Virus record (IMG/VR): IMGVR_UViG_2663762945_000004
Coordinates: 1 to 6,584 of that record
Reading direction: 5' to 3' (one strand)
From: a virus
Taxonomy: Duplodnaviria > Heunggongvirae > Uroviricota > Caudoviricetes
DNA: 6,584 nucleotides
Shown here: positions 1 to 6,584 of the stretch, piece after piece
How positions within the stretch are numbered: position 1 is the stretch's first letter
Layout: each line of letters starts with the position of its first letter
Program-made: the position numbers and the translations under genes
The notes under the pieces: generated by a model
What the model saw: the letters and a program-made list of their open reading frames with translations, nothing else
Database searches by the model: none
What the model was told of the DNA's origin: nothing

Positions 1-510
1 ATGCAGCTTAAGCTCCGGATACATAGCGTTAACTTCTGGCATTTTCATCAACGCTTCAACGATATGGCCGTCGAATGTTGCCATGTCTTCCTGCAACAAT
101 TCCTGTGCGCTAATCACCATATCAACAGTGATGTTTTCACATGTGTCGAACTTAACCATGACAGCGTTCTGTACTTCAGGGGCTAGGTTGTCAAAAGTGA
201 CGTTCATCGGATCTGATTCAGTCTCAACCGGGACAAAGGAAGCTGACTCCTCATCCCAGCGGTTTTCCTGCATATATTCAGCATCCCAGGAATCGAGGGC
301 AGGGCGGGGTATACCGGGTTTATCCTCGCAAACAAGAAATTTATAAGCGCAGTCCTGAGCAGCCGGATATTGCTCCAGGAATTGCCAGGTAAATTTGGCA
401 CGGGCGCGGCGTTCGTCGCCAGCTTCAATGGCAGTGGCTACAGCGACTGCACCTTCTTCCTTTATTGCCTGTTCGTCCGGAATAGCGGCGCAAATAAAGA
501 CTTTACTCAT
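1..510 (-). CDS. Hypothetical phage early-left protein, 3'-truncated by the window start (170 codons, no stop in window)
   Basis: Hand translation of the minus strand from ATG at 510-508 (GAGGT about 9 nt upstream) gives an uninterrupted frame to position 1: MSKVFICAAIPDEQAIKEEG...NAMYPELKLH. Absent from the ORF track because it has no stop in the window; the plus-strand ORFs 1..186 and 83..346 are its antisense shadows. No family recognised. Confidence 0.55.
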   Translation of the reverse strand, partial: MSKVFICAAIPDEQAIKEEGAVAVATAIEAGDERRARAKFTWQFLEQYPAAQDCAYKFLVCEDKPGIPRPALDSWDAEYMQENRWDEESASFVPVETESDPMNVTFDNLAPEVQNAVMVKFDTCENITVDMVISAQELLQEDMATFDGHIVEALMKMPEVNAMYPELKLH

Positions 511-589
511 GTTGTTTTAACCTCATTACAGATTTAAGGGTGAACAAATCCCTGCCATTGCTGGCATATAAAATGAAACCGGATATTAA

Positions 590-802
590 TTACGGCGCTG
601 TTTTAAGTCCTGCCGGGATTTCGTTATTATCCATGTGAATAACTTTATCGACCGGATAACAGTTGCCGGGAATTTTCTGTTCCGCTGCGGCAGCCGTGCA
701 TTCTTTCATTGAACCGTAAATGTCAATAACCAGATTAACAGGCTCGCCAGTATTAAGATAAACTGTCAGAGCGAGTGCAAATGCTGTATTCACTGCCAGC
801 AT
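590..802 (-). CDS. Small hypothetical protein (about 70 aa from internal Met; ORF extends to 847)
   Basis: Minus-strand ORF with stop at 590. Hydrophobic N-terminal stretch (MLAVNTAFALALTVYL) from the ATG at 802. Neither candidate start (847 or 802) has a well-spaced Shine-Dalgarno. Start at 802 would overlap the upstream ORF by 13 nt. Confidence 0.25.
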   Translation of the reverse strand: MLAVNTAFALALTVYLNTGEPVNLVIDIYGSMKECTAAAAEQKIPGNCYPVDKVIHMDNNEIPAGLKTAP

Positions 803-978
803 CCTTTTTGCATCAGACGTAAACGGGCCAGCATTGAAACAATGCATATTTGATTTAATAGCTCCCGTTCGTGTTTTCTCTTATTAATAGCATCTTCAGT
901 AAATACAGGGTTACTGATTCTGACACCAATTTCAAAGCAACCTTCAGACGTATTAACGTTTGGTAATAACGTTTCCAT
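790..978 (-). CDS. Small hypothetical protein (62 aa)
   Basis: ATG at 978 preceded by GAGGA with 7-nt spacing; the SD overlaps the TGA stop of the upstream Rha-family gene (989-991), suggesting co-transcription and coupling. No family recognised. Confidence 0.4.
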   Translation of the reverse strand: METLLPNVNTSEGCFEIGVRISNPVFTEDAINKRKHERELLNQICIVSMLARLRLMQKGCWQ

Positions 979-988
979 TATCGCGTCC

Positions 989-1546
989 TCAGCAATGAAT
1001 TTTGAGTAATTGCTCCACAGTCATATTTTTAATTGAGTTCCGGTTAACAAGAGTCCATCCCTGTTTTTCCAGATAAAACCGGAAAGTCTCCAGGGTACAG
1101 ACGAGAGCGCCATCAGGAACGGTTTCGGTGAATCTGATGTTGCCGCGTTCGTCGAAGTGAACAACCAGAGTGCGGCCATCGCCTGAAATTATTTTGTCAG
1201 TGGGTGGGGTGTTATTCTGGCACAGCTCGGCCTCCATGCGATCGAACTCAGCAATGTAGGCTTCTTTAAATGCAGCGGCTTTTTTGCCAGTGAATCCCAT
1301 CACCAGGAAAACGAAGCCGTTTTTGGTGATTTGGTACATTGGGAGTTTGCGTCCGGTTGAGTCGGTGTATTTGCTCGACACAAAATTGTGCTCAGTGAAT
1401 TTTGCTGAACAGTCCAGATTGCGAATTTTATCCAACACTCGTTCGTGGCGTTTGCCAAAGAACTCGGCGATCGCAACAGACGTAGTGACAGCGCGACCAT
1501 TTTCGATGGTTACGTCAGGGTGAGAAAGGGTAAGGGTAGTAGCCAT
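989..1546 (-). CDS. Rha-family phage regulatory protein (pRha domain), possible antirepressor-type regulator
   Basis: Translation from ATG at 1546 (GGAGG SD 7 nt upstream) gives MATTLTLSHPDVTIENGRAVTTSVAIAEFFGKRHERVLDKIRNLDCSAKFTEHNFVSSKYTDSTGRKLPMYQITKNGFVFLVMGF..., which I recognise as an N-terminal Phage_pRha-type domain. The track ORF continues in frame upstream to an ATG at 1843 (AGGTGAG SD), so the true start is ambiguous. I prefer 1546 because the pRha domain is normally N-terminal and the upstream extension contains a terminator-like hairpin. Confidence 0.7.
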   Translation of the reverse strand: MATTLTLSHPDVTIENGRAVTTSVAIAEFFGKRHERVLDKIRNLDCSAKFTEHNFVSSKYTDSTGRKLPMYQITKNGFVFLVMGFTGKKAAAFKEAYIAEFDRMEAELCQNNTPPTDKIISGDGRTLVVHFDERGNIRFTETVPDGALVCTLETFRFYLEKQGWTLVNRNSIKNMTVEQLLKIHC

Positions 1547-1715
1547 GATGGCAGCCTCCGCGATGAATTTGATTAACTCACCACCGAGGTTTTCCACGAC
1601 CATAAGGGTGGTGAGACGTACAGGGGTGGAAATACCGGTCATCACGGAACCCGGCCAGCCTTGCGGCAGCCCTGCACGCCCCACCATAATGCGAATGTGG
1701 CTGTGCTTAACGCAT

Positions 1716-1738
1716 AAAAAAACCGCCTGAGCGCGGTT
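1716..1738 (-). terminator. Putative intrinsic terminator on the minus strand (hairpin plus U-tract)
   Basis: Plus strand reads aaaaaaaccgcctgagcgcggtt. On the minus-strand transcript this is a stem AACCGC / GCGGUU (4 GC + 2 AU pairs) with a 6-nt loop, followed by a run of 7 U. The stem is short, so strength is uncertain. It lies about 170 nt upstream of the Rha start at 1546. Confidence 0.4.
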
Positions 1739-1865
1739 ATGCGCCGTGAATGATTTCGGGTTTCCACGCCCGGCACCCGTTTTATAAGGTGCAGGCGAAC
1801 TATAATTCCACCCGTTCTGGTTTTCAATAGCTACATTCAACATTTTCTCTCACCTTTCATCACCG

Positions 1866-2021
1866 AAGTGAATTTTGTGATGCGGTGCCTGGTGCCTCCA
1901 GGTGACGTTAACCAGTTAACAATTAACGCCGGATACAGAGAACCCACCCATAACACACTGTTTTTGGTTTTAACTGTTCCGCGTGCGCTTAGCCGCATTC
2001 ACCGCATCACAAAATTCACTT
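1866..2021. repeat. Perfect 22-bp inverted repeat (arms 1866-1887 and 2000-2021) flanking a 112-bp spacer
   Basis: Left arm aagtgaattttgtgatgcggtg is the exact reverse complement of right arm caccgcatcacaaaattcactt. The spacer contains a small hairpin (cctgg tgcct ccagg, 1888-1902) and two GTTAAC palindromes. No convincing ORF overlaps it. Confidence 0.85.
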
Positions 2022-2383
2022 TAAAAAGGGCGGCAGAGCAGTCACGGAGTAAAACTGATACCGCCAAACGTCACCAGAAAATTGATAACAGAGGGCGTTG
2101 CAGCGGAGTTGTCACTTAAGCGTATGGTCAACCTGACAACCCGGCGTCCTCAACGGGGGAAGGAATAACCCCGCCATACTTACCGCCGCGCCATTTCGCG
2201 GATTGCCACAACCGGAAGCGCACGGTCGAATTAAATTTAACGACAAAGTACAGAGAGACGAGCTTCTCCGTGCGTTTTCGTGTTATGCCCTGACTTTTCA
2301 GGGATATATCCTTTTCAGTAAACTGTCAGTGCCGGATTCTTATCCGTGTCCGGCGCACGCACTCTACCTCACCTGTGAATAAA

Positions 2384-2758
2384 TTAATGATTAATTGATA
2401 TTTTGTTGTTTGATTCAACTTTCCCATCGGATGTGTGATGCTTTAAATCACAGGAATTAATACTGCTTGCTGTAAAATGATTTTCAAGGGGAGCTATTCG
2501 AATCCCTTTCTTTTTCATTAACAAGCCAAATCCTTTATTAATGATGTCCATTAATTCCAGAAAGTATTTTTCATGTAAATCCTGGTTATCAGAGAGCTGC
2601 TTCTCTTCGTACAGCCCGATAAAGGCTCGGCGTACGTTACCGGATATATTGTCGATGGTTTCTTTTTCTACGGTACTCAGGTCAAGAGTCGCCAGTTGAG
2701 AGCGAACCACATTCGATGCCATTTCCTGGAATGGTACTGGTAAATCTTTAAATTCCAT
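2384..2758 (-). CDS. Hypothetical protein (124 aa from Met at 2758; ORF extends to 2770), unknown function
   Basis: ATG at 2758 has a GAGGT SD with about 6-nt spacing. The alternative ATG at 2770 overlaps the upstream ORF stop by 1 nt (TGATG). Protein MEFKDLPVPFQEMASNVVRSQLATLDLSTVEKETIDNISGNVRRAFIGLYEEK..., no family recognised. The 3' two-thirds (about 2381-2580) is about 30 percent GC by hand count, far below the neighbours. Confidence 0.55.
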   Translation of the reverse strand: MEFKDLPVPFQEMASNVVRSQLATLDLSTVEKETIDNISGNVRRAFIGLYEEKQLSDNQDLHEKYFLELMDIINKGFGLLMKKKGIRIAPLENHFTASSINSCDLKHHTSDGKVESNNKISINH

Positions 2759-2769
2759 CGTCAACCTCA

Positions 2770-2922
2770 TCAGTCGGAGTTTCTTGCTAACCAGCGACGC
2801 GCGCCAGCTTCGGTTTTAAACGTTTTGCTTTTGGTATACGTCATCGCGGTGAACGTACCGTCCTGGTTGGGGAACACGCCACATACCAGAGATTCGCTGT
2901 TGCCAAGATCGATAGTATCCAT
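2770..2922 (-). CDS. Small protein (50 aa from Met at 2922; in-frame ORF extends to 3003), resembles small YdaF/DUF1391-like prophage proteins
   Basis: ATG at 2922 preceded by GAGGT at 4-nt spacing. An upstream in-frame ATG at 3003 also has a GAGG SD, so the start is ambiguous. Sequence MDTIDLGNSESLVCGVFPNQDGTFTAMTYTKSKTFKTEAGARRWLARNSD; the YdaF/DUF1391 resemblance is from memory and unverified. Confidence 0.5.
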   Translation of the reverse strand: MDTIDLGNSESLVCGVFPNQDGTFTAMTYTKSKTFKTEAGARRWLARNSD

Positions 2923-3098
2923 GCTGACCTCATTTCCCCTTAACGCCGGGGTAGCGGAACAAAAACCTGCTGCATAGTTATTAAAGTTGAACCCTGCCGT
3001 CATGTTCTTACGCCTCGGGCTGGCTACTTAACCCCTGACCACTGCCTGGTAACTCGAAGTATTGCCCTGCATTCTGTGGGGCGGGGTGGGTGGCAGGT

Positions 3099-3156
3099 AT
3101 ATAATGTACTTTGTGTTCATTGTTGTAAAGTACATTTAGTACATTTTGTGTGTAAA
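3099..3156 (-). promoter_or_regulatory. Putative leftward early promoter with operator-like repeats (pL/oL analogue)
   Basis: Three copies of the 7-mer ATGTACT or its reverse complement at 3104-3110 (forward), 3129-3135 and 3138-3144 (reverse). A candidate minus-strand sigma70 promoter overlaps them: -35 TTTACA (plus 3129-3124), 17-bp spacer, -10 CATTAT (plus 3106-3101). A plus-strand TATAAT also occurs at 3100-3105. Confidence 0.35.
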
Positions 3157-3219
3157 AAAATGAGATGGGATAAAGTGAAGCACAAACCCGGAGGAAGGCG
3201 CTACCGGATTTATGCTGGT

Positions 3220-3639
3220 TTAAGAGGCTTTTTGTTTTTTCTTTCGTGCTAACTCTTCGTAAATTGCATTGTACTTCTGTTTTTTCTCTTCAAGAGTTTT
3301 TAAAAGTTCATCTGTCTCACTGTCAGGGAGCTCGTCCAGAAGGTCAATGATGATTTTTTGTCTTGGATTTAACTCCTGATAGAAACGTACCTGTCCACTT
3401 TCTTCTGTATCCTCTCCCAAAAGATAGGTTGGTGTTGTTCCTATTAGTGTTGCTAATTCCCTTAATTTCTCCCGGCGAGGAATTGTTTCGCCATTAAACC
3501 ATTTGCTAACCGCTTTTGGTGTTAATTTCATTCGACGGGCAATTTCTGCCTGCCTTCCATGTTGTTCATAACCAGCGTTTTCACAGGCTAGCGCAAGCCT
3601 ACTGGCGAACTCTTTACGCGCTTTATCTTCATGAACCAT
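3220..3639 (-). CDS. Prophage repressor, HTH XRE family (CI-like, 139 aa), no LexA-like S24 peptidase domain
   Basis: ORF-track protein has an N-terminal XRE-type helix-turn-helix (QAEIARRMKLTPKAVSKWFNGETIPRREKLRELATLIGTTPTYLLGED) and a short charged, probably helical C-terminus (EELARKKKQKAS). It is divergent from a Cro-like gene. No SD precedes the ATG, consistent with a leaderless transcript as for lambda cI from pRM. Confidence 0.85.
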   Translation of the reverse strand: MVHEDKARKEFASRLALACENAGYEQHGRQAEIARRMKLTPKAVSKWFNGETIPRREKLRELATLIGTTPTYLLGEDTEESGQVRFYQELNPRQKIIIDLLDELPDSETDELLKTLEEKKQKYNAIYEELARKKKQKAS

Positions 3640-3718
3640 AAGTTCAATGATATTCGCTCTTGAATGTACTGTCAGTTCTGTTATAGCATGTACTCAAAGT
3701 TCACATTGTGAGGGTGAT
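3640..3718. promoter_or_regulatory. Divergent promoter/operator region (pRM-like leftward, pR-like rightward)
   Basis: Two forward ATGTACT copies at 3664-3670 and 3688-3694. Candidate pR: -35 TTGAAT (3660-3665), 16-bp spacer, -10 TATAGC (3682-3687). Candidate pRM on the minus strand: -35 CTGACA (plus 3675-3670), 17-bp spacer, -10 TATCAT (plus 3652-3647), ending about 7 nt before the repressor ATG. An 11-bp perfect palindrome TCACATTGTGA (3701-3711) sits just before the cro-like SD. Confidence 0.45.
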
Positions 3719-3973
3719 ATGAACCAGAAAACACTTGAAGATGTAATCAAAACTGTTCGCGTTGCTGTTGTGGCCGACGTTTGTGGTGTCAGCCAAAGAG
3801 CAATCTATAAATGGATGGATAACGGAAAATTGCCTCGCACAGAATATACCGGCGAAACAAATTACGCTGAAAAAATCGCTCTTGCATCAAACGGATTATT
3901 TTCTGCCGATGCAATTTTAACTATTGGCAGGAATAAAACTACTACGAAAAAGCTGATGGGAGTTGATTCATGA
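3719..3973 (+). CDS. Cro-like HTH regulator, YdaS family (84 aa)
   Basis: ATG at 3719 preceded by GAGGGTG. Protein MNQKTLEDVIKTVRVAVVADVCGVSQRAIYKWMDNGKLPRTEYTGETNYAEKIALASNGLFSADAILTIG... has the Cro/YdaS-type HTH pattern. Divergent from the repressor. Its TGA stop overlaps the next gene start (ATGA at 3970-3973). The track ORF starts upstream at 3647 but lacks an SD there. Confidence 0.8.
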   Translation: MNQKTLEDVIKTVRVAVVADVCGVSQRAIYKWMDNGKLPRTEYTGETNYAEKIALASNGLFSADAILTIGRNKTTTKKLMGVDS

Positions 3974-4395
3974 AAATCAAGCATGAACACATCCGCATGG
4001 CGATGAATGCCTGGGCGCATCCGGACGGCGAAAAAGTACCGGCTGCGAAAATTACCAAAGCGTATTTCGAGCTGGGAATGACGTTCCCGGAACTGTATGA
4101 CGACAGCCATCCGGAAGCCCTGGCTCGCAATACTCAGAAAATTTTCCGCTGGGTGGAGAAAGACACCCCTGATGCGGTTAAAAAAATTCAGGCGTTGTTA
4201 CCAGCTATCGAAAAAGCAATGCCACCTCTGCTGGTGGCCCGAATGCGCAGTCATAGCTCAGCCTATTTTCGGGAACTAGTGGAGACGCGGGAACGACTGG
4301 TGAGAGACGCTGATGATTTTGTCGCAGTGGCGATCGCTGGTTTCAACCAGATGAATCGTGGTGGCCCTGCAGGAAATATTGTGGCTGTGCATTGA
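3970..4395 (+). CDS. ydaT: YdaT-family protein (CII-like regulator; family historically annotated as a putative toxin), 141 aa
   Basis: Protein begins MKIKHEHIRMAMNAWAHPDGEKVPAAKITKAYFELGMTFPELYDDSHPEALARNTQKIFRWVEKD..., which I recognise as the YdaT family of Rac-like prophages. Start overlaps the upstream stop by 4 nt, indicating translational coupling. Confidence 0.78.
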   Translation: MKIKHEHIRMAMNAWAHPDGEKVPAAKITKAYFELGMTFPELYDDSHPEALARNTQKIFRWVEKDTPDAVKKIQALLPAIEKAMPPLLVARMRSHSSAYFRELVETRERLVRDADDFVAVAIAGFNQMNRGGPAGNIVAVH

Positions 4396-4466
4396 CTCGC
4401 AATATTCATACCGGATCGCTTCCGGCAATTTGTGAGTAAAAAGATTCGGTATCAAAAGAGGTGAGT

Positions 4467-5228
4467 ATGGCTAACGCCTGGCTCAGATTATGGCATGACA
4501 TGCCAAATGACCCTAAGTGGCGAACAATTGCCAGGGTGTCAGGGCAGCCAATTGCAACAGTGATGGCAGTGTATATCCACCTCCTGGTGAGCGCGTCACG
4601 AAATGTCACGCGAGGTCACATTGAGGTCACGACAGAAGATTTGGCAAGTGCGCTCGACGTGACAGAAGAGGTAATTGATTCAATTTTGCAGACGATGCAG
4701 GGGCGGGTACTTGATGGTGATTTAATCACTGGATGGGAAAAACGCCAGGTGCTTAAAGAGGACAACGGCAATATTTCGCAAACCGCAAAATCTCCTGCAG
4801 AGCGCAAGAGGGCGCAGCGAGAGAGGGAAAGAAAGCGGGAACAAAATGGCGATTGTCACGGCGCGTCACGAAATGTCACGCATATGTCACGACGAGTCAC
4901 GACAGATAAAGATACAGATAAAGATACAGATCAAGAAGATCAAAACACTATGGTCCATGGCGTAAAAAACGCCACGAACCAGGCAGGGGATGTTCAGACC
5001 GTCAATCTTGGTCAGCCAGCAGGCACGACACCGGAAGCCGATTCAGCGTATGCGCTGAAAGCCGATTCGGGCGCTGTGCAGCAGGTGATGACCGCAAGGC
5101 CGGAGCAATCACACCAACTGCAGCAGCCCGAAGCCGATTCCGCCATTCAGCGGGAAGCCGATCGGGTAGTCCCGGAAAACACCGGGCAGTCTGTGGGACG
5201 AGTGGATTACCGGAACTCGGGCTGGTGA
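4467..5228 (+). CDS. Replication initiator-like protein (lambda O analogue) with iteron arrays inside its coding sequence
   Basis: ATG at 4467 with AGAGGTG upstream (the track starts at GTG 4461). N-terminus MANAWLRLWHDMPNDPKWRTIARVSGQPIATVMAVYIHLLVSASRN... followed by a winged-helix-like segment (TEDLASALDVTEEVIDSILQTMQGRVL). An acidic TDKDTDKDTDQEDQ linker is encoded by a tandem repeat. Two GTCAC iteron arrays lie inside the gene, as the lambda origin lies inside O. The family name is not verified. Confidence 0.65.
   Translation: MANAWLRLWHDMPNDPKWRTIARVSGQPIATVMAVYIHLLVSASRNVTRGHIEVTTEDLASALDVTEEVIDSILQTMQGRVLDGDLITGWEKRQVLKEDNGNISQTAKSPAERKRAQRERERKREQNGDCHGASRNVTHMSRRVTTDKDTDKDTDQEDQNTMVHGVKNATNQAGDVQTVNLGQPAGTTPEADSAYALKADSGAVQQVMTARPEQSHQLQQPEADSAIQREADRVVPENTGQSVGRVDYRNSGW
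4592..4636. repeat. Iteron array 1: four GTCAC(G) direct repeats at 10-11-bp spacing
   Basis: GTCAC begins at 4596, 4606, 4616 and 4627. The units are gtcacgaaat, gtcacgcgag, gtcacattgag and gtcacgacag. Confidence 0.6.
4855..4905. repeat. Iteron array 2: five GTCAC(G) direct repeats at 10-11-bp spacing (candidate replication origin core)
   Basis: GTCAC begins at 4855, 4865, 4875, 4886 and 4896. A 21-bp segment GCGCGTCACGAAATGTCACGC is shared exactly with array 1 (4592-4612 and 4861-4881). The array is immediately followed by an AT-rich tandem repeat. Confidence 0.6.
4902..4940. repeat. Tandem 12-bp repeat (acagataaagat twice, then a degenerate third copy), AT-rich, adjacent to iteron array 2
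   Basis: acagataaagat at 4902-4913 and 4914-4925, then acagatcaagaagat. It encodes the TDKDTDKDTDQEDQ linker and is placed like the AT-rich unwinding region next to the lambda ori iterons. Confidence 0.6.
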
Positions 5229-6229
5229 TCGTTAAGCCGGGCCGTGAATCCATGCCGGTATTCCACAATACCCGGGTACTGGTGGAGCCGGAACCGAAAA
5301 GCATGCGTAATCTGCCGTCCGGGGTCGTTCCTGCCGTTCGCCAGCCGCTGGCGGAGGATAAATCATTACTGCCATTTTTCAGCGACGAACGAGTGATTCG
5401 TGCTGCTGGTGGCGCTGGCGCATTGTCTGACTGGTTACTGCGCCATGTTAAATCCTGCCAGTGGCCACACGGCGATTATCACCACAGTGAAACCGTCATT
5501 CACCGTTATGGTACCGGCGCAATGGTGTTGTGCTGGCACTGCGACAACCAGCTGCGCGACCAGACCTCCGAATCACTCGGGCAACTTGCTCACCAAAACC
5601 TGTCTGCATGGATGATTGACGTCATACGCCATGCAATGAATGGCTCGCAGGAACGGGAATTATCGCTGGCTGAATTATCCTGGTGGGCGGTCCGCAATCA
5701 GGTGGCGGACGCGCTACCGGAAGCGGTATTACGTCGTTCGCTGGGGTTGCGTGCGGAAAAAATCCGCTCAATGTACCGTGAAAGCGACATCGTACCGGGA
5801 GAGCAGACCGCCACCAGCATACTGAAACAGCGCACAAAAAATCTTGCGCCGCTGCCTCACGCCCACCAGCAACAGAACCCACCACAGGAAAAGACGGTGG
5901 TCAGCATTGCCGTTGATCCTGAGTCTCCGGAATCTTTCATGAAACGACCTAAACGTCGCCGCTGGGTTAACGAGAAATACACACGCTGGGTGAAGACACA
6001 GCCGTGTGCGTGTTGTGGTAAGCCAGCCGACGATCCCCATCACCTGATTGGTCATGGTCAGGGCGGAATGGGGACAAAATCTCACGATATTTTCACGCTA
6101 CCGCTGTGTCGGGAGCATCACAACGAGCTTCATGCGGATCCTCTGGCGTTCGAAGAAAAGCATGGTTCTCAGGTTGATTTAATTTTTCGTTTTCTTGATC
6201 ACGCCTTTGCAACTGGCGTGCTTGGGTAA
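5225..6229 (+). CDS. DUF968-family prophage protein with a C-terminal Cys/His HNH-like motif (putative nuclease or zinc-binding)
   Basis: The track ORF starts at GTG 5225, overlapping the upstream TGA (GTGA); an alternative ATG is at 5252, and neither has a clear SD. The C-terminus CACCGKPADDPHHLIGHGQGGMGTKSHDIFTLPLCREHHNELH matches the motif I associate with DUF968 (YdfU-like) proteins. Family assignment is from memory. Confidence 0.7.
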   Translation: MIVKPGRESMPVFHNTRVLVEPEPKSMRNLPSGVVPAVRQPLAEDKSLLPFFSDERVIRAAGGAGALSDWLLRHVKSCQWPHGDYHHSETVIHRYGTGAMVLCWHCDNQLRDQTSESLGQLAHQNLSAWMIDVIRHAMNGSQERELSLAELSWWAVRNQVADALPEAVLRRSLGLRAEKIRSMYRESDIVPGEQTATSILKQRTKNLAPLPHAHQQQNPPQEKTVVSIAVDPESPESFMKRPKRRRWVNEKYTRWVKTQPCACCGKPADDPHHLIGHGQGGMGTKSHDIFTLPLCREHHNELHADPLAFEEKHGSQVDLIFRFLDHAFATGVLG

Positions 6230-6241
6230 AAGAGGTGACTG

Positions 6242-6584
6242 ATGATCATAGATTTGGTTTTACCTTACCCGCCGACGGTGAACACTTACTGGCGACGCCG
6301 TGGCAGCACATATTTTATCTCGGAGGAGGGAAAGCGTTATCGCCGGGCTGTGGCGCTTATTGTTCGCCAGCAGCGGCTGAAATTAAGCCTGTCCGGAAGG
6401 CTGGCGATAAAGGTGATTGCAGAGCCACCGGATAAGCGTCGTCGAGACCTGGACAATATCCTGAAAGCACCGCTGGATGCGCTGACGCATGCGGGAGTGT
6501 TAATGGACGATGAGCAGTTTGATGAAATCAATATCGTTCGTGGTCAGCCAGTATCTGGTGGACGTATGGGGGTGAAGATTTACC
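6242..6584 (+). CDS. rusA: Crossover junction endodeoxyribonuclease RusA (Holliday junction resolvase), 3'-truncated by the window end
   Basis: Hand translation from ATG 6242 (AGAGGTG SD 4 nt upstream): MIIDLVLPYPPTVNTYWRRRGSTYFISEEGKRYRRAVALIVRQQRLKLSLSGRLAIKVIAEPPDKRRRDLDNILKAPLDALTHAGVLMDDEQFDEINIVRGQPVSGGRMGVKIY. This has the RusA motifs (PPSxNxYxR, DxRRRDxDN, DD). It is missing from the ORF track because there is no stop in the window; track ORF 6235..6435 is in the wrong frame. Confidence 0.85.
   Translation, partial: MIIDLVLPYPPTVNTYWRRRGSTYFISEEGKRYRRAVALIVRQQRLKLSLSGRLAIKVIAEPPDKRRRDLDNILKAPLDALTHAGVLMDDEQFDEINIVRGQPVSGGRMGVKIY

Follow-up and report, generated by a model that had tools for sequence, protein, structure and literature searches.

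How can a prophage be induced when its maintenance repressor lacks the domain needed for RecA-stimulated self-cleavage? This question is posed by a stretch of 6,584 nucleotides (positions 1 to 6,584 of the Caudoviricetes record IMGVR_UViG_2663762945_000004 in IMG/VR), referred to in full as the window, which is the immunity and early region of a Qin/Tritos-type lambdoid prophage and encodes a short repressor together with a Rha-family protein on the same strand. The original prediction for this DNA held that induction probably does not proceed through self-cleavage of the repressor and pointed to Rha as its possible antagonist. The follow-up described here identifies the protein, with high confidence, as the CI-equivalent maintenance repressor of a Qin/Tritos-like lambdoid Escherichia coli prophage that does not cleave itself. 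As an overall explanation of the locus, a repressor of the DicA/GfoR class combined with an RNA-gated Rha as its candidate antagonist is preferred and considered fairly probable. The repressor is located as follows.

3220..3639, minus strand: maintenance repressor of 139 amino acids (aa), supported by its open reading frame (ORF), an HTH_3 domain and a match to the CI protein of phage Tritos

The repressor ORF reads from 3639 to 3220 with an ATG start and a TAA stop, and domain alignment divides its product into an XRE-type helix-turn-helix (HTH) domain at approximately residues 1-78 and a C-terminal helical module of the DicA/GfoR type at approximately residues 85-139 (hereafter the C-module). 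Its Pfam matches are exclusively to HTH families (HTH_3, E=1.8e-9, residues 29-73), with no match to Peptidase_S24 (PF00717) in the same search. The AlphaFold2 model, with a mean predicted local distance difference test (pLDDT) score of 82.8, is wholly helical with zero beta strands and comprises a five-helix HTH domain (residues 2-74) and C-terminal helices at 82-88, 92-103 and 106-138, the approximately 55 residues after the HTH domain being all helical and the linker at 79-82 being of low confidence or predicted disordered. Because the model is without beta strands, an S24 fold is impossible for this protein. Sequence and fold searches of PDB returned HTH domains only (P22 C2, 434 repressor and similar ones), with P22 C2 as the top sequence match; a Ser/Lys dyad of the S24 type is absent as judged from Pfam and the model, and reading of the linker sequence (residues 76-90) revealed no Ala-Gly. 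Since neither an S24 domain nor a Ser/Lys dyad is present, RecA-stimulated autocleavage is regarded on architectural grounds as very unlikely for this repressor. Thus, the description of a 139-aa protein with an N-terminal HTH, a short helical C-terminus and no LexA/S24-like fold was borne out by the ORF, the domain search and the structural model.

The class of the repressor is defined by its C-terminal part. A BLASTP alignment with DicA of the Qin prophage (29% identity, E=5e-15) spans residues 30-137 and thus takes in the C-terminal helices. The repressor also aligns with GfoR of Gifsy-1, including the start of the C-module (E=3e-10), but barely with RacR. Multiple alignment revealed that the C-terminal approximately 55 residues (..PRQ..LL.LFD.LP.SE..LL..) are common to DicA, GfoR and other short repressors with unrelated HTH domains; the motif ..LLxLFxxLPxSE.. 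is present in the repressor and homologous to the module of DicA and GfoR, and a hidden Markov model (HMM) of the C-module matches the repressor with E=3e-28. Besides DicA and GfoR, no fewer than 15 further immunity types have this module, in the position where other repressors have the S24 domain. On this evidence the repressor is assigned to the DicA/GfoR class of short lambdoid repressors. Members of this class have been studied: Gifsy repressors are not cleaved but inactivated by antirepressors, with DicA and RacR named as members of the group (PMC3121763), and DicA is inactivated by the Qin protein Rem (PMC10448788). Class membership and these reports support the earlier proposal that induction does not occur by RecA-stimulated self-cleavage, and the accompanying statement that short repressors of the Gifsy type are inactivated by antirepressors is established for the class. 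Hence, non-cleavable, antirepressor-controlled behaviour is already published for the class of this repressor, a point missed by the original prediction, and the same protein is already annotated in a studied phage.

This phage is Escherichia phage Tritos (prophage 3 of strain LF82), whose annotated CI repressor is 100% identical to the repressor of the window. Tritos is a plaque-forming phage with low-level spontaneous release, and the LF82 prophages for which induction by ciprofloxacin or trimethoprim is reported do not include it (PMC9928086). Of 5426 complete E. coli genomes, 1047 carry the 631-bp immunity region, nearly always at 95% identity or more. These data bear on the reading of the 139-aa protein as a truncated, non-functional remnant of an S24-type CI, which could draw on the fact that S24-bearing repressors of 235-240 aa in Raoultella and relatives (proteins P0021 and P0033-P0038) have an HTH domain with 62-72% identity to its own. 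An HTH domain akin to those of S24-bearing repressors, when joined to a C-module common to short repressors, means a domain swap and not a truncation, and the last 55 residues are thus a conserved module and not out-of-frame debris. Furthermore, the identical protein represses a plaque-forming phage (PMC9928086), and about 1000 genomes retain its immunity region with at least 95% identity. The pseudogene reading is effectively refuted by the conserved C-module and the functional phage, and it is scarcely credible; as judged from the alignments, the repressor is a domain-swapped relative of cleavable repressors.

What the repressor may control can be read from the anatomy of the surrounding immunity region, whose elements are listed below.

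3631..3704: right operator region (OR) with three 17-bp sites ATGWAC-N5-GTWCAT (3631-3647, 3664-3680 and 3688-3704)
3104..3144: left operator region (OL) with two sites (3104-3120 and 3128-3144), overlapping the leftward promoter
3647..3675, minus strand: promoter-like site of the repressor, CTGACA-17-TATCAT (consensus scan, 10/12 matches)
3101..3129, minus strand: pL-like leftward promoter TTTACA-17-CATTAT under the OL sites (consensus scan)
3719..3973, plus strand: Cro/DicC-like small HTH protein (HTH_17, phrog_35), divergent from the repressor
3970..4395, plus strand: YdaT-family, CII-like activator (PF06254, phrog_163)

The motif ATGWAC-N5-GTWCAT occurs five times in the entire window, each time at OR or OL, a number reached in 0 of 200 shuffles. 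With operators confined to OL and OR and a divergent Cro-like gene, whose counterpart in relatives is annotated as an HTH regulator, the repressor is part of a CI/Cro-type switch. The first site of OR (3631-3647) overlaps the repressor start codon, which sits 8 nt past the end of the -10-like hexamer and within the operator site, and no Shine-Dalgarno sequence is visible before this ATG on reading of the sequence. Such an arrangement, with no Shine-Dalgarno and a -10 ending 8 nt before the ATG, points to a near-leaderless repressor mRNA, which is probably autoregulated as is lambda cI from pRM. The repressor would thus bind the five sites, shut off pR (the cro-like, YdaT/CII-like and replication genes) as well as pL (ydfA ... 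dicF ... dicB), and probably regulate its own near-leaderless promoter. Presumably incapable of self-cleavage by its architecture and by the published work on its class, it would be relieved by a protein antagonist, by stochastic Cro-driven switching or by both, as for DicA.

A route through the SOS response is not evident, since neither a LexA box nor a GfoA-like gene was found in the window or in Tritos. As originally predicted, the window contains no exact CTGT-N8-ACAG LexA box, and its two one-mismatch sites correspond to chance level (1.89 expected). An exact box is also absent from the entire Tritos genome, which has three one-mismatch LexA-like sites with AT-rich spacers, none of which coincides with the promoter of a candidate gene. 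In tblastn searches, the window, the whole of Tritos and the loci of KKa014, EC08, B19695 and ST131 gave no match to Rem or GfoA better than E~0.05, though small antirepressors diverge fast and could escape such a search. The suggested search for a LexA-regulated antirepressor in flanking prophage DNA hence yielded neither an exact box (window and Tritos) nor a Rem or GfoA homologue (window and the loci of relatives). A 92-aa ORF preceding the DUF968 gene in relatives was considered as a Rem candidate and rejected, as it is not Rem-like.

The copy of the prophage in the window has in addition suffered a loss in its replication region, which contains the following genes.

4461-5228, plus strand: truncated O-like initiator
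5225-6229, plus strand: DUF968 gene, followed by the start of rusA

Approximately 3.5 kb present in KKa014 are missing at a deletion junction at 5208-5228, where the O-like initiator ends at 249 of 356 profile positions and the junction falls 28 nt into the DUF968 gene, which lacks its first 10-16 codons. Due to the truncated initiator and the loss of about 3.5 kb, this copy is probably replication-defective. In relatives the missing stretch carries a DUF977-family gene, other small genes and hokD, and it is the position where Qin carries rem and Gifsy-1 carries gfoA. A cognate small antirepressor, if ever located there, has been lost from this copy. None of the complete E. coli genomes contains the window in its entirety, the best matches covering about 80% of it, and the truncated O-like protein has no counterpart on record.

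These observations allow an explanation in which derepression requires no antirepressor from the window, either because repressor instability and Cro-driven bistable switching suffice or because a small antirepressor is encoded elsewhere in the prophage, in a region possibly lost from this copy. DicA switches spontaneously and upon heat or urea treatment in a DicC-dependent but Rem-independent manner (PMC10448788), and Tritos with the identical repressor shows low spontaneous induction, is not reported as ciprofloxacin-induced (PMC9928086) and is devoid of an exact LexA box and of recognisable homologues of Rem, GfoA, Rha and AnrP; the deletion between the O-like gene and DUF968 in the rem/gfoA-equivalent region is a further point in favour. 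Absence from Tritos is weak evidence, because of the divergence of small antirepressors beyond the reach of tblastn, and the presence of an intact, RNA-gated AnrP-like gene is not accounted for. This explanation is regarded as possible but somewhat doubtful.

A further route would be proteolysis of the repressor by another enzyme, such as an ImmA/IrrE-type metalloprotease or host Lon or ClpXP. Tritos encodes at 36945-38090 an ImmA/IrrE metallopeptidase fused to an XRE HTH domain, which is expressed in the lysogen (PMC9928086), and the repressor linker at 79-82 is predicted to be disordered. Pfam and PHROG profile searches revealed no such protease gene in the window, the Tritos gene lies in an accessory nin-like region, unlike repressor-adjacent ImmR/ImmA pairs, and the precedent for the class is stoichiometric antirepression without cleavage (PMC3121763). 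Proteolysis by another enzyme is accordingly improbable.

The preferred explanation instead assigns the role of the antagonist to Rha, the sole candidate antagonist in the window, which derives from a separately acquired cassette with the elements given below.

989..1546, minus strand: Rha-family protein of 185 aa, candidate antirepressor (PF09669)
1005..1868, minus strand: inserted cassette of 864 bp with P_isrK, IsrK, C4-like RNA and Rha (colinear comparison)
1799..1827, minus strand: cassette promoter TTGAAA-17-TATAGT (consensus scan, 10/12 matches)
1716..1792, minus strand: IsrK small RNA (sRNA) with intrinsic terminator (Rfam RF01394, 65.4 bits against 50)
1761-1767 and 1744-1753, minus strand: C4 decoy targets a1 and b1 in IsrK
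1604..1691, minus strand: C4-type antisense RNA, full length (Rfam RF01695, 77.6 bits against a gathering score of 45)
1639-1650 and 1626-1632, minus strand: C4 pairing segments, b' loop GUUCCGUGAUGA and a' UUUCCAC
1555..1597, minus strand: C4 targets in the Rha leader, a2 GUGGAAA at 1591-1597 and b2 UCAUCGCGGAG at 1556-1566

Tritos, strain KKa014 and K-12 Qin lack the cassette but are colinear with the window in other respects, and the comparison places its insertion directly before dicB. A 9-bp direct repeat TGAATTTTG flanks the cassette at 996-1004 and 1869-1877 and resembles either a target duplication or the junction left by microhomology; 18 nt upstream of dicB, Tritos and K-12 Qin have a single copy of these 9 bp, and no transposase is found in the cassette. 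Placement of Rha in the leftward operon, as originally predicted, was correct in so far as a Rha-family gene does lie downstream on the same strand, but the gene belongs to an inserted cassette with its own promoter beyond the DicF terminator and should not be counted as an ordinary gene of the pL operon. The -10 of the cassette promoter, which is sigma-70-like, ends 7 nt ahead of the IsrK 5' end, and the implied transcription start at approximately 1792 coincides with the first base of IsrK. The leader as a whole is homologous to that of isrK-orf45-anrP in Gifsy-1.

Within this leader, UCAUCGCGGAG overlaps the Shine-Dalgarno sequence GGAGG of Rha (1555-1559) and can pair with the 12-nt C4 loop GUUCCGUGAUGA, giving an 11-bp b'/b2 duplex over GGAGG, and the C4 segment UUUCCAC is complementary to GUGGAAA located upstream of UCAUCGCGGAG. 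A second copy of both C4 targets is carried by IsrK, on which the c4-a1b1 model scores 28.7 bits, under its gathering score of 46.7. Covariation was examined in 19 cassettes, namely those of the window, Gifsy-1, two Stx2a phages and 15 viral contigs, with b' and b2 compared by duplex energies per cassette, as classes differ by 2 nt in the register of the duplex. These cassettes contain 15 distinct b' loops and 7 distinct a' segments, and in all 19 the b' loop pairs best with the b2 of its own cassette, with a mean duplex energy of -17.2 kcal/mol for cognate against -7.9 +/- 2.8 for non-cognate pairs; for a' and a1, likewise, the own partner is best in 19 of 19. Since loop, decoy and target at the ribosome-binding site (RBS) change together, the RNA gating is taken to be functional, and cassette-specific antisense control of Rha, overlooked in the original prediction, is very probable. 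Such tight control, specific for each cassette, argues that the product is potent. Across cassettes the a and b types combine in a shuffled fashion, which suggests recombination between cassettes together with selection for private antisense control.

In this layout IsrK is made from a constitutive-looking promoter and terminates, with read-through yielding the C4-type RNA and the Rha mRNA; the C4 loops pair with the Shine-Dalgarno region of Rha, and IsrK offers decoy targets. By homology to IsrK-orf45-AnrP of Gifsy-1 and c4-icd-ant of P1, translation of Rha would normally be blocked and released when IsrK titrates the antisense element. The AnrP-type C-terminal domain (C-domain) of Rha would then bind the C-module of the repressor and free the repressor from DNA.

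Two features of the reading frame upstream of Rha should be mentioned. The start codon of Gifsy-1 orf45, UUAUGGUGGGG, located in C4, is conserved at 1684-1686 and is in frame with Rha, adding 47 codons. With an orf45-type AUG running in frame into Rha, long and short Rha isoforms are possible, reminiscent of Ant1/Ant2 of P1. In public annotation, Rha is lengthened to 282-284 aa with an N-terminus matching Pfam Phage_ASH (PF10554) and named 'Ash+Rha', the added stretch corresponding to 1547-1843 on the minus strand; this frame is open for at least 97 codons in 31 of 35 distinct leaders. Because the stretch consists of the cassette promoter together with IsrK and C4, translated RNA may account for the 'Ash' match. 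The annotated 284-aa 'Ash+Rha' fusion thus hides a riboregulator, and the annotation needs correcting.

The protein itself links the cassette to a known inducer of a prophage. Rha matches Phage_pRha (PF09669) over residues 21-105 (E=6e-31, 107.4 bits against a cut-off of 29.9) and is composed of a KilA-N/Bro-N-like N-terminal domain (N-domain, 13-110), a linker and an AnrP-type C-domain (120-185). Direct BLASTP comparison of Rha and AnrP gives E=0.039 only, with N-domains that differ (Phage_pRha in Rha, ORF6N in AnrP). The AnrP-family profile phrog_2379 matches Rha residues 101-173 (E=9e-8), and a profile of the Rha C-domain matches AnrP residues 135-181 (hhalign probability 93.7%, E=2e-7); by these profile comparisons the C-domains of Rha and AnrP are homologous. 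Expression of AnrP raises the mRNA of the antQ operon and induces Gifsy-1, and deletion of the isrK promoter in Gifsy-1 abolishes stationary-phase induction (PMC4825925). GfoR, the repressor of Gifsy-1, has the same C-module as the repressor of the window. N-domains of the Rha and ORF6N types and C-domains of at least two types (AnrP and phrog_1760) occur in all four combinations behind C4/IsrK leaders, examples being phage P13374 (4863-5648), Stx2a_WGPS2 (4644-5795) and Gifsy-1 (33513-34076), which indicates modular shuffling of antirepressor-like proteins.

Whether the C-domain and the C-module belong together was addressed by the genomic neighbourhood in viral contigs. Upstream of Rha, the C-module HMM detected a 123-176-aa repressor in 66 of 80 loci, with at least 15 different N-domains. 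For loci with the AnrP-type C-domain, a short repressor with the C-module is found upstream in 61 of 80 and an S24 repressor in none (by an S24 HMM built for the analysis), while for those with the P13374-type C-domain an S24 CI is found upstream in 29 of 53 and a short repressor in none, an association that is confounded by phage lineage, with the P13374-type set being essentially one immunity type. If Rha does inactivate the repressor, the C-module is its likely docking site, and one Rha could then serve many immunity types, as this module is shared between them. It may even be that the AnrP-type C-domain is specialised for recognising the C-module throughout the DicA/GfoR class, although this conjecture is rather unlikely.

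Several observations speak against Rha as a dedicated antagonist of this repressor, beginning with the lineage effect noted above. In 15 genomes (of which several represent one strain) the cassette lies next to the immunity region; the region is present in 1047 genomes and the cassette in 396, so that independence of the two would predict about 76 joint cases. Given 15 of 1047, Rha is accessory and dispensable for the immunity type. Tritos, with the identical repressor, lacks Rha, AnrP, C4 and IsrK anywhere in its genome. Near-identical Rha proteins stand beside many different repressors and immunity types, and related Rha cassettes occur in Stx2a phages having S24 CI repressors. The N-domain of Rha has a fold of the DNA-binding type (KilA-N/Bro-N/APSES-like), so that Rha could be a transcription factor. 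Moreover, AnrP itself is not known to bind a repressor.

The same observations are accommodated if the Rha cassette is a mobile accessory module that does not act on the neighbouring repressor, its target being the repressor of a co-resident or superinfecting phage, in a competition between prophages (compare P1 Ant and the Gifsy cross-talk), or DNA, with Rha as a transcription factor. In addition to the N-domain fold and the lack of enrichment with this repressor, such a role agrees with insertion between 9-bp repeats, with occurrence beside at least 12 immunity types as well as in Stx phages with S24 CI, and with the strong diversification of C4 classes, which is expected of an immunity-like module competing with other copies. 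It is challenged by the AnrP-type C-domain, shared with a protein that induces its own prophage (PMC4825925), and by the fact that all repressors found beside this Rha type have the same C-module; one antagonist of broad specificity fits the distribution over many immunity types equally well. An accessory module of this kind is a serious possibility, though short of even, and direct inactivation of the repressor of the window by Rha is a tentative proposal, somewhat less likely than not. Rha is thus a reasonable candidate antirepressor, but one accessory to the immunity type. Suspicion of Rha as an antagonist gains from its AnrP-like leader and C-domain and loses from the fact that the cassette is an optional insertion, present in 15 of 1047 genomes and absent from Tritos, KKa014 and Qin. 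Taken together, the link between Rha and the repressor is plausible and appears better founded through the RNA-gated, AnrP-related cassette than before, yet this cassette is optional.

The remainder of the leftward operon, in which the cassette is inserted, is composed as follows.

2770..3003, minus strand: YdfA-like DUF1391 protein, first gene of the leftward operon (PF07151, E=4e-28)
2384..2770, minus strand: 128-aa ORF (phrog_6937, a family of unknown function)
2028..2079, minus strand: DicF sRNA with terminator (Rfam RF00039, 76.7 bits against a gathering score of 48)
1874-2016, minus strand: long STnc100-like hairpin with 23-nt inverted arms (Rfam 39.3, below the gathering score of 47)
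790..978, minus strand: DicB cell-division inhibitor, downstream of the cassette (PF05358, E=1e-38)
Left of dicB, minus strand: ydfD-like gene, followed by the end of an exonuclease gene

The 128-aa ORF stands in the place of ydfB/ydfC of Qin and Tritos, in a region not shared with Tritos, and the identical swap is seen in prophages of ST131. The STnc100-like hairpin, located between dicF and the cassette, has counterparts in Tritos and Qin.

This immunity type is carried by approximately one fifth of complete E. coli genomes, and its prophages control dicB and dicF, hence cell-division inhibition and phage resistance; we know of no inducing signal for them. Of practical value is that RecA cleavage can in all likelihood be excluded for their repressor. 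Should the pairing of C-domain and C-module prove true, it would account for induction without SOS, and for cross-talk, in many prophages of E. coli and Salmonella, and the cassette gated by IsrK and C4 would serve as a portable, SOS-independent 'master key' for short-repressor lambdoid prophages in a polylysogen, indifferent to the DNA-binding specificity of the repressor and with each cassette silenced by its own antisense RNA class. The second C-domain type (P13374 ORF29) would then fill the matching role for S24-type CI repressors. If the pairing is not true, the locus is a routine immunity region with an accessory moron.

Compared with known systems, the repressor shares a related HTH and a CI/Cro-type switch with multiple 17-bp operators with lambda CI, P22 C2 and LexA, but these have an S24 domain and a Ser/Lys dyad, both of which it lacks. 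A structural analogy is offered by SinR/SinI of Bacillus subtilis and an SPbeta-type arbitrium repressor with its small antirepressor (PDB 1b0n and 9iaq), in which an XRE HTH is followed by a short helical oligomerisation domain engaged by the antagonist; both are Foldseek matches to the repressor model (E~0.015) that are driven by the HTH and amount to structural analogy only, the C-terminal modules of SinR and the arbitrium repressor having no sequence relationship to that of the window repressor. The closest parallel is DicA of Qin, with 135 aa against 139 aa, an HTH_3 N-domain and a homologous C-terminal helical module in both, and the same layout of repressor, leftward ydfA ... dicF ... 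dicB and divergent Cro-like gene. DicA, which an antirepressor inactivates, likewise has no Ala-Gly site for cleavage (PMC10448788). With 29% identity and different operators, the two define different immunity types; Qin carries rem, of which tblastn found no homologue in the window or Tritos, and lacks the IsrK/C4/Rha cassette. GfoR and GtgR of Gifsy-1 and Gifsy-2 are also short (136 aa), uncleaved and inactivated by antirepressor binding (PMC3121763), but their antirepressors GfoA and GftA are LexA-controlled, whereas the window and Tritos have neither an exact LexA box nor a GfoA-like gene.

For the cassette, the nearest relative is isrK-orf45-anrP of Gifsy-1, where the likeness of the leader covers the promoter, IsrK with its terminator, the C4-like element and the Shine-Dalgarno region, and where the same three-way a/b complementarity and a homologous C-terminal protein domain are found. 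The two differ in the N-domain (ORF6N in AnrP, the Rha type in the window protein), in location (downstream of Q in Gifsy-1, between dicF and dicB in the window) and in orf45, which is a separate ORF in Gifsy-1, while the same AUG leads in frame into Rha in the window. The immI region of P1 has the order a1b1, c4, a2b2, as has the window, with the C4 RNA processed from the transcript of its target and with a2/b2 placed over the RBS of the antirepressor operon. The window differs from it in its effector, which is a Rha with an AnrP-type C-domain in place of Ant, in having no icd gene and in its host element, a lambdoid prophage with a DicA-type repressor, whereas P1 has C1. Common to P1/P7 immI and the window are a C4-family RNA, an upstream a1/b1 decoy and specificity classes set by covariation of loop and target, and the covariation observed among the cassettes thus resembles the heteroimmunity classes of P1 and P7.

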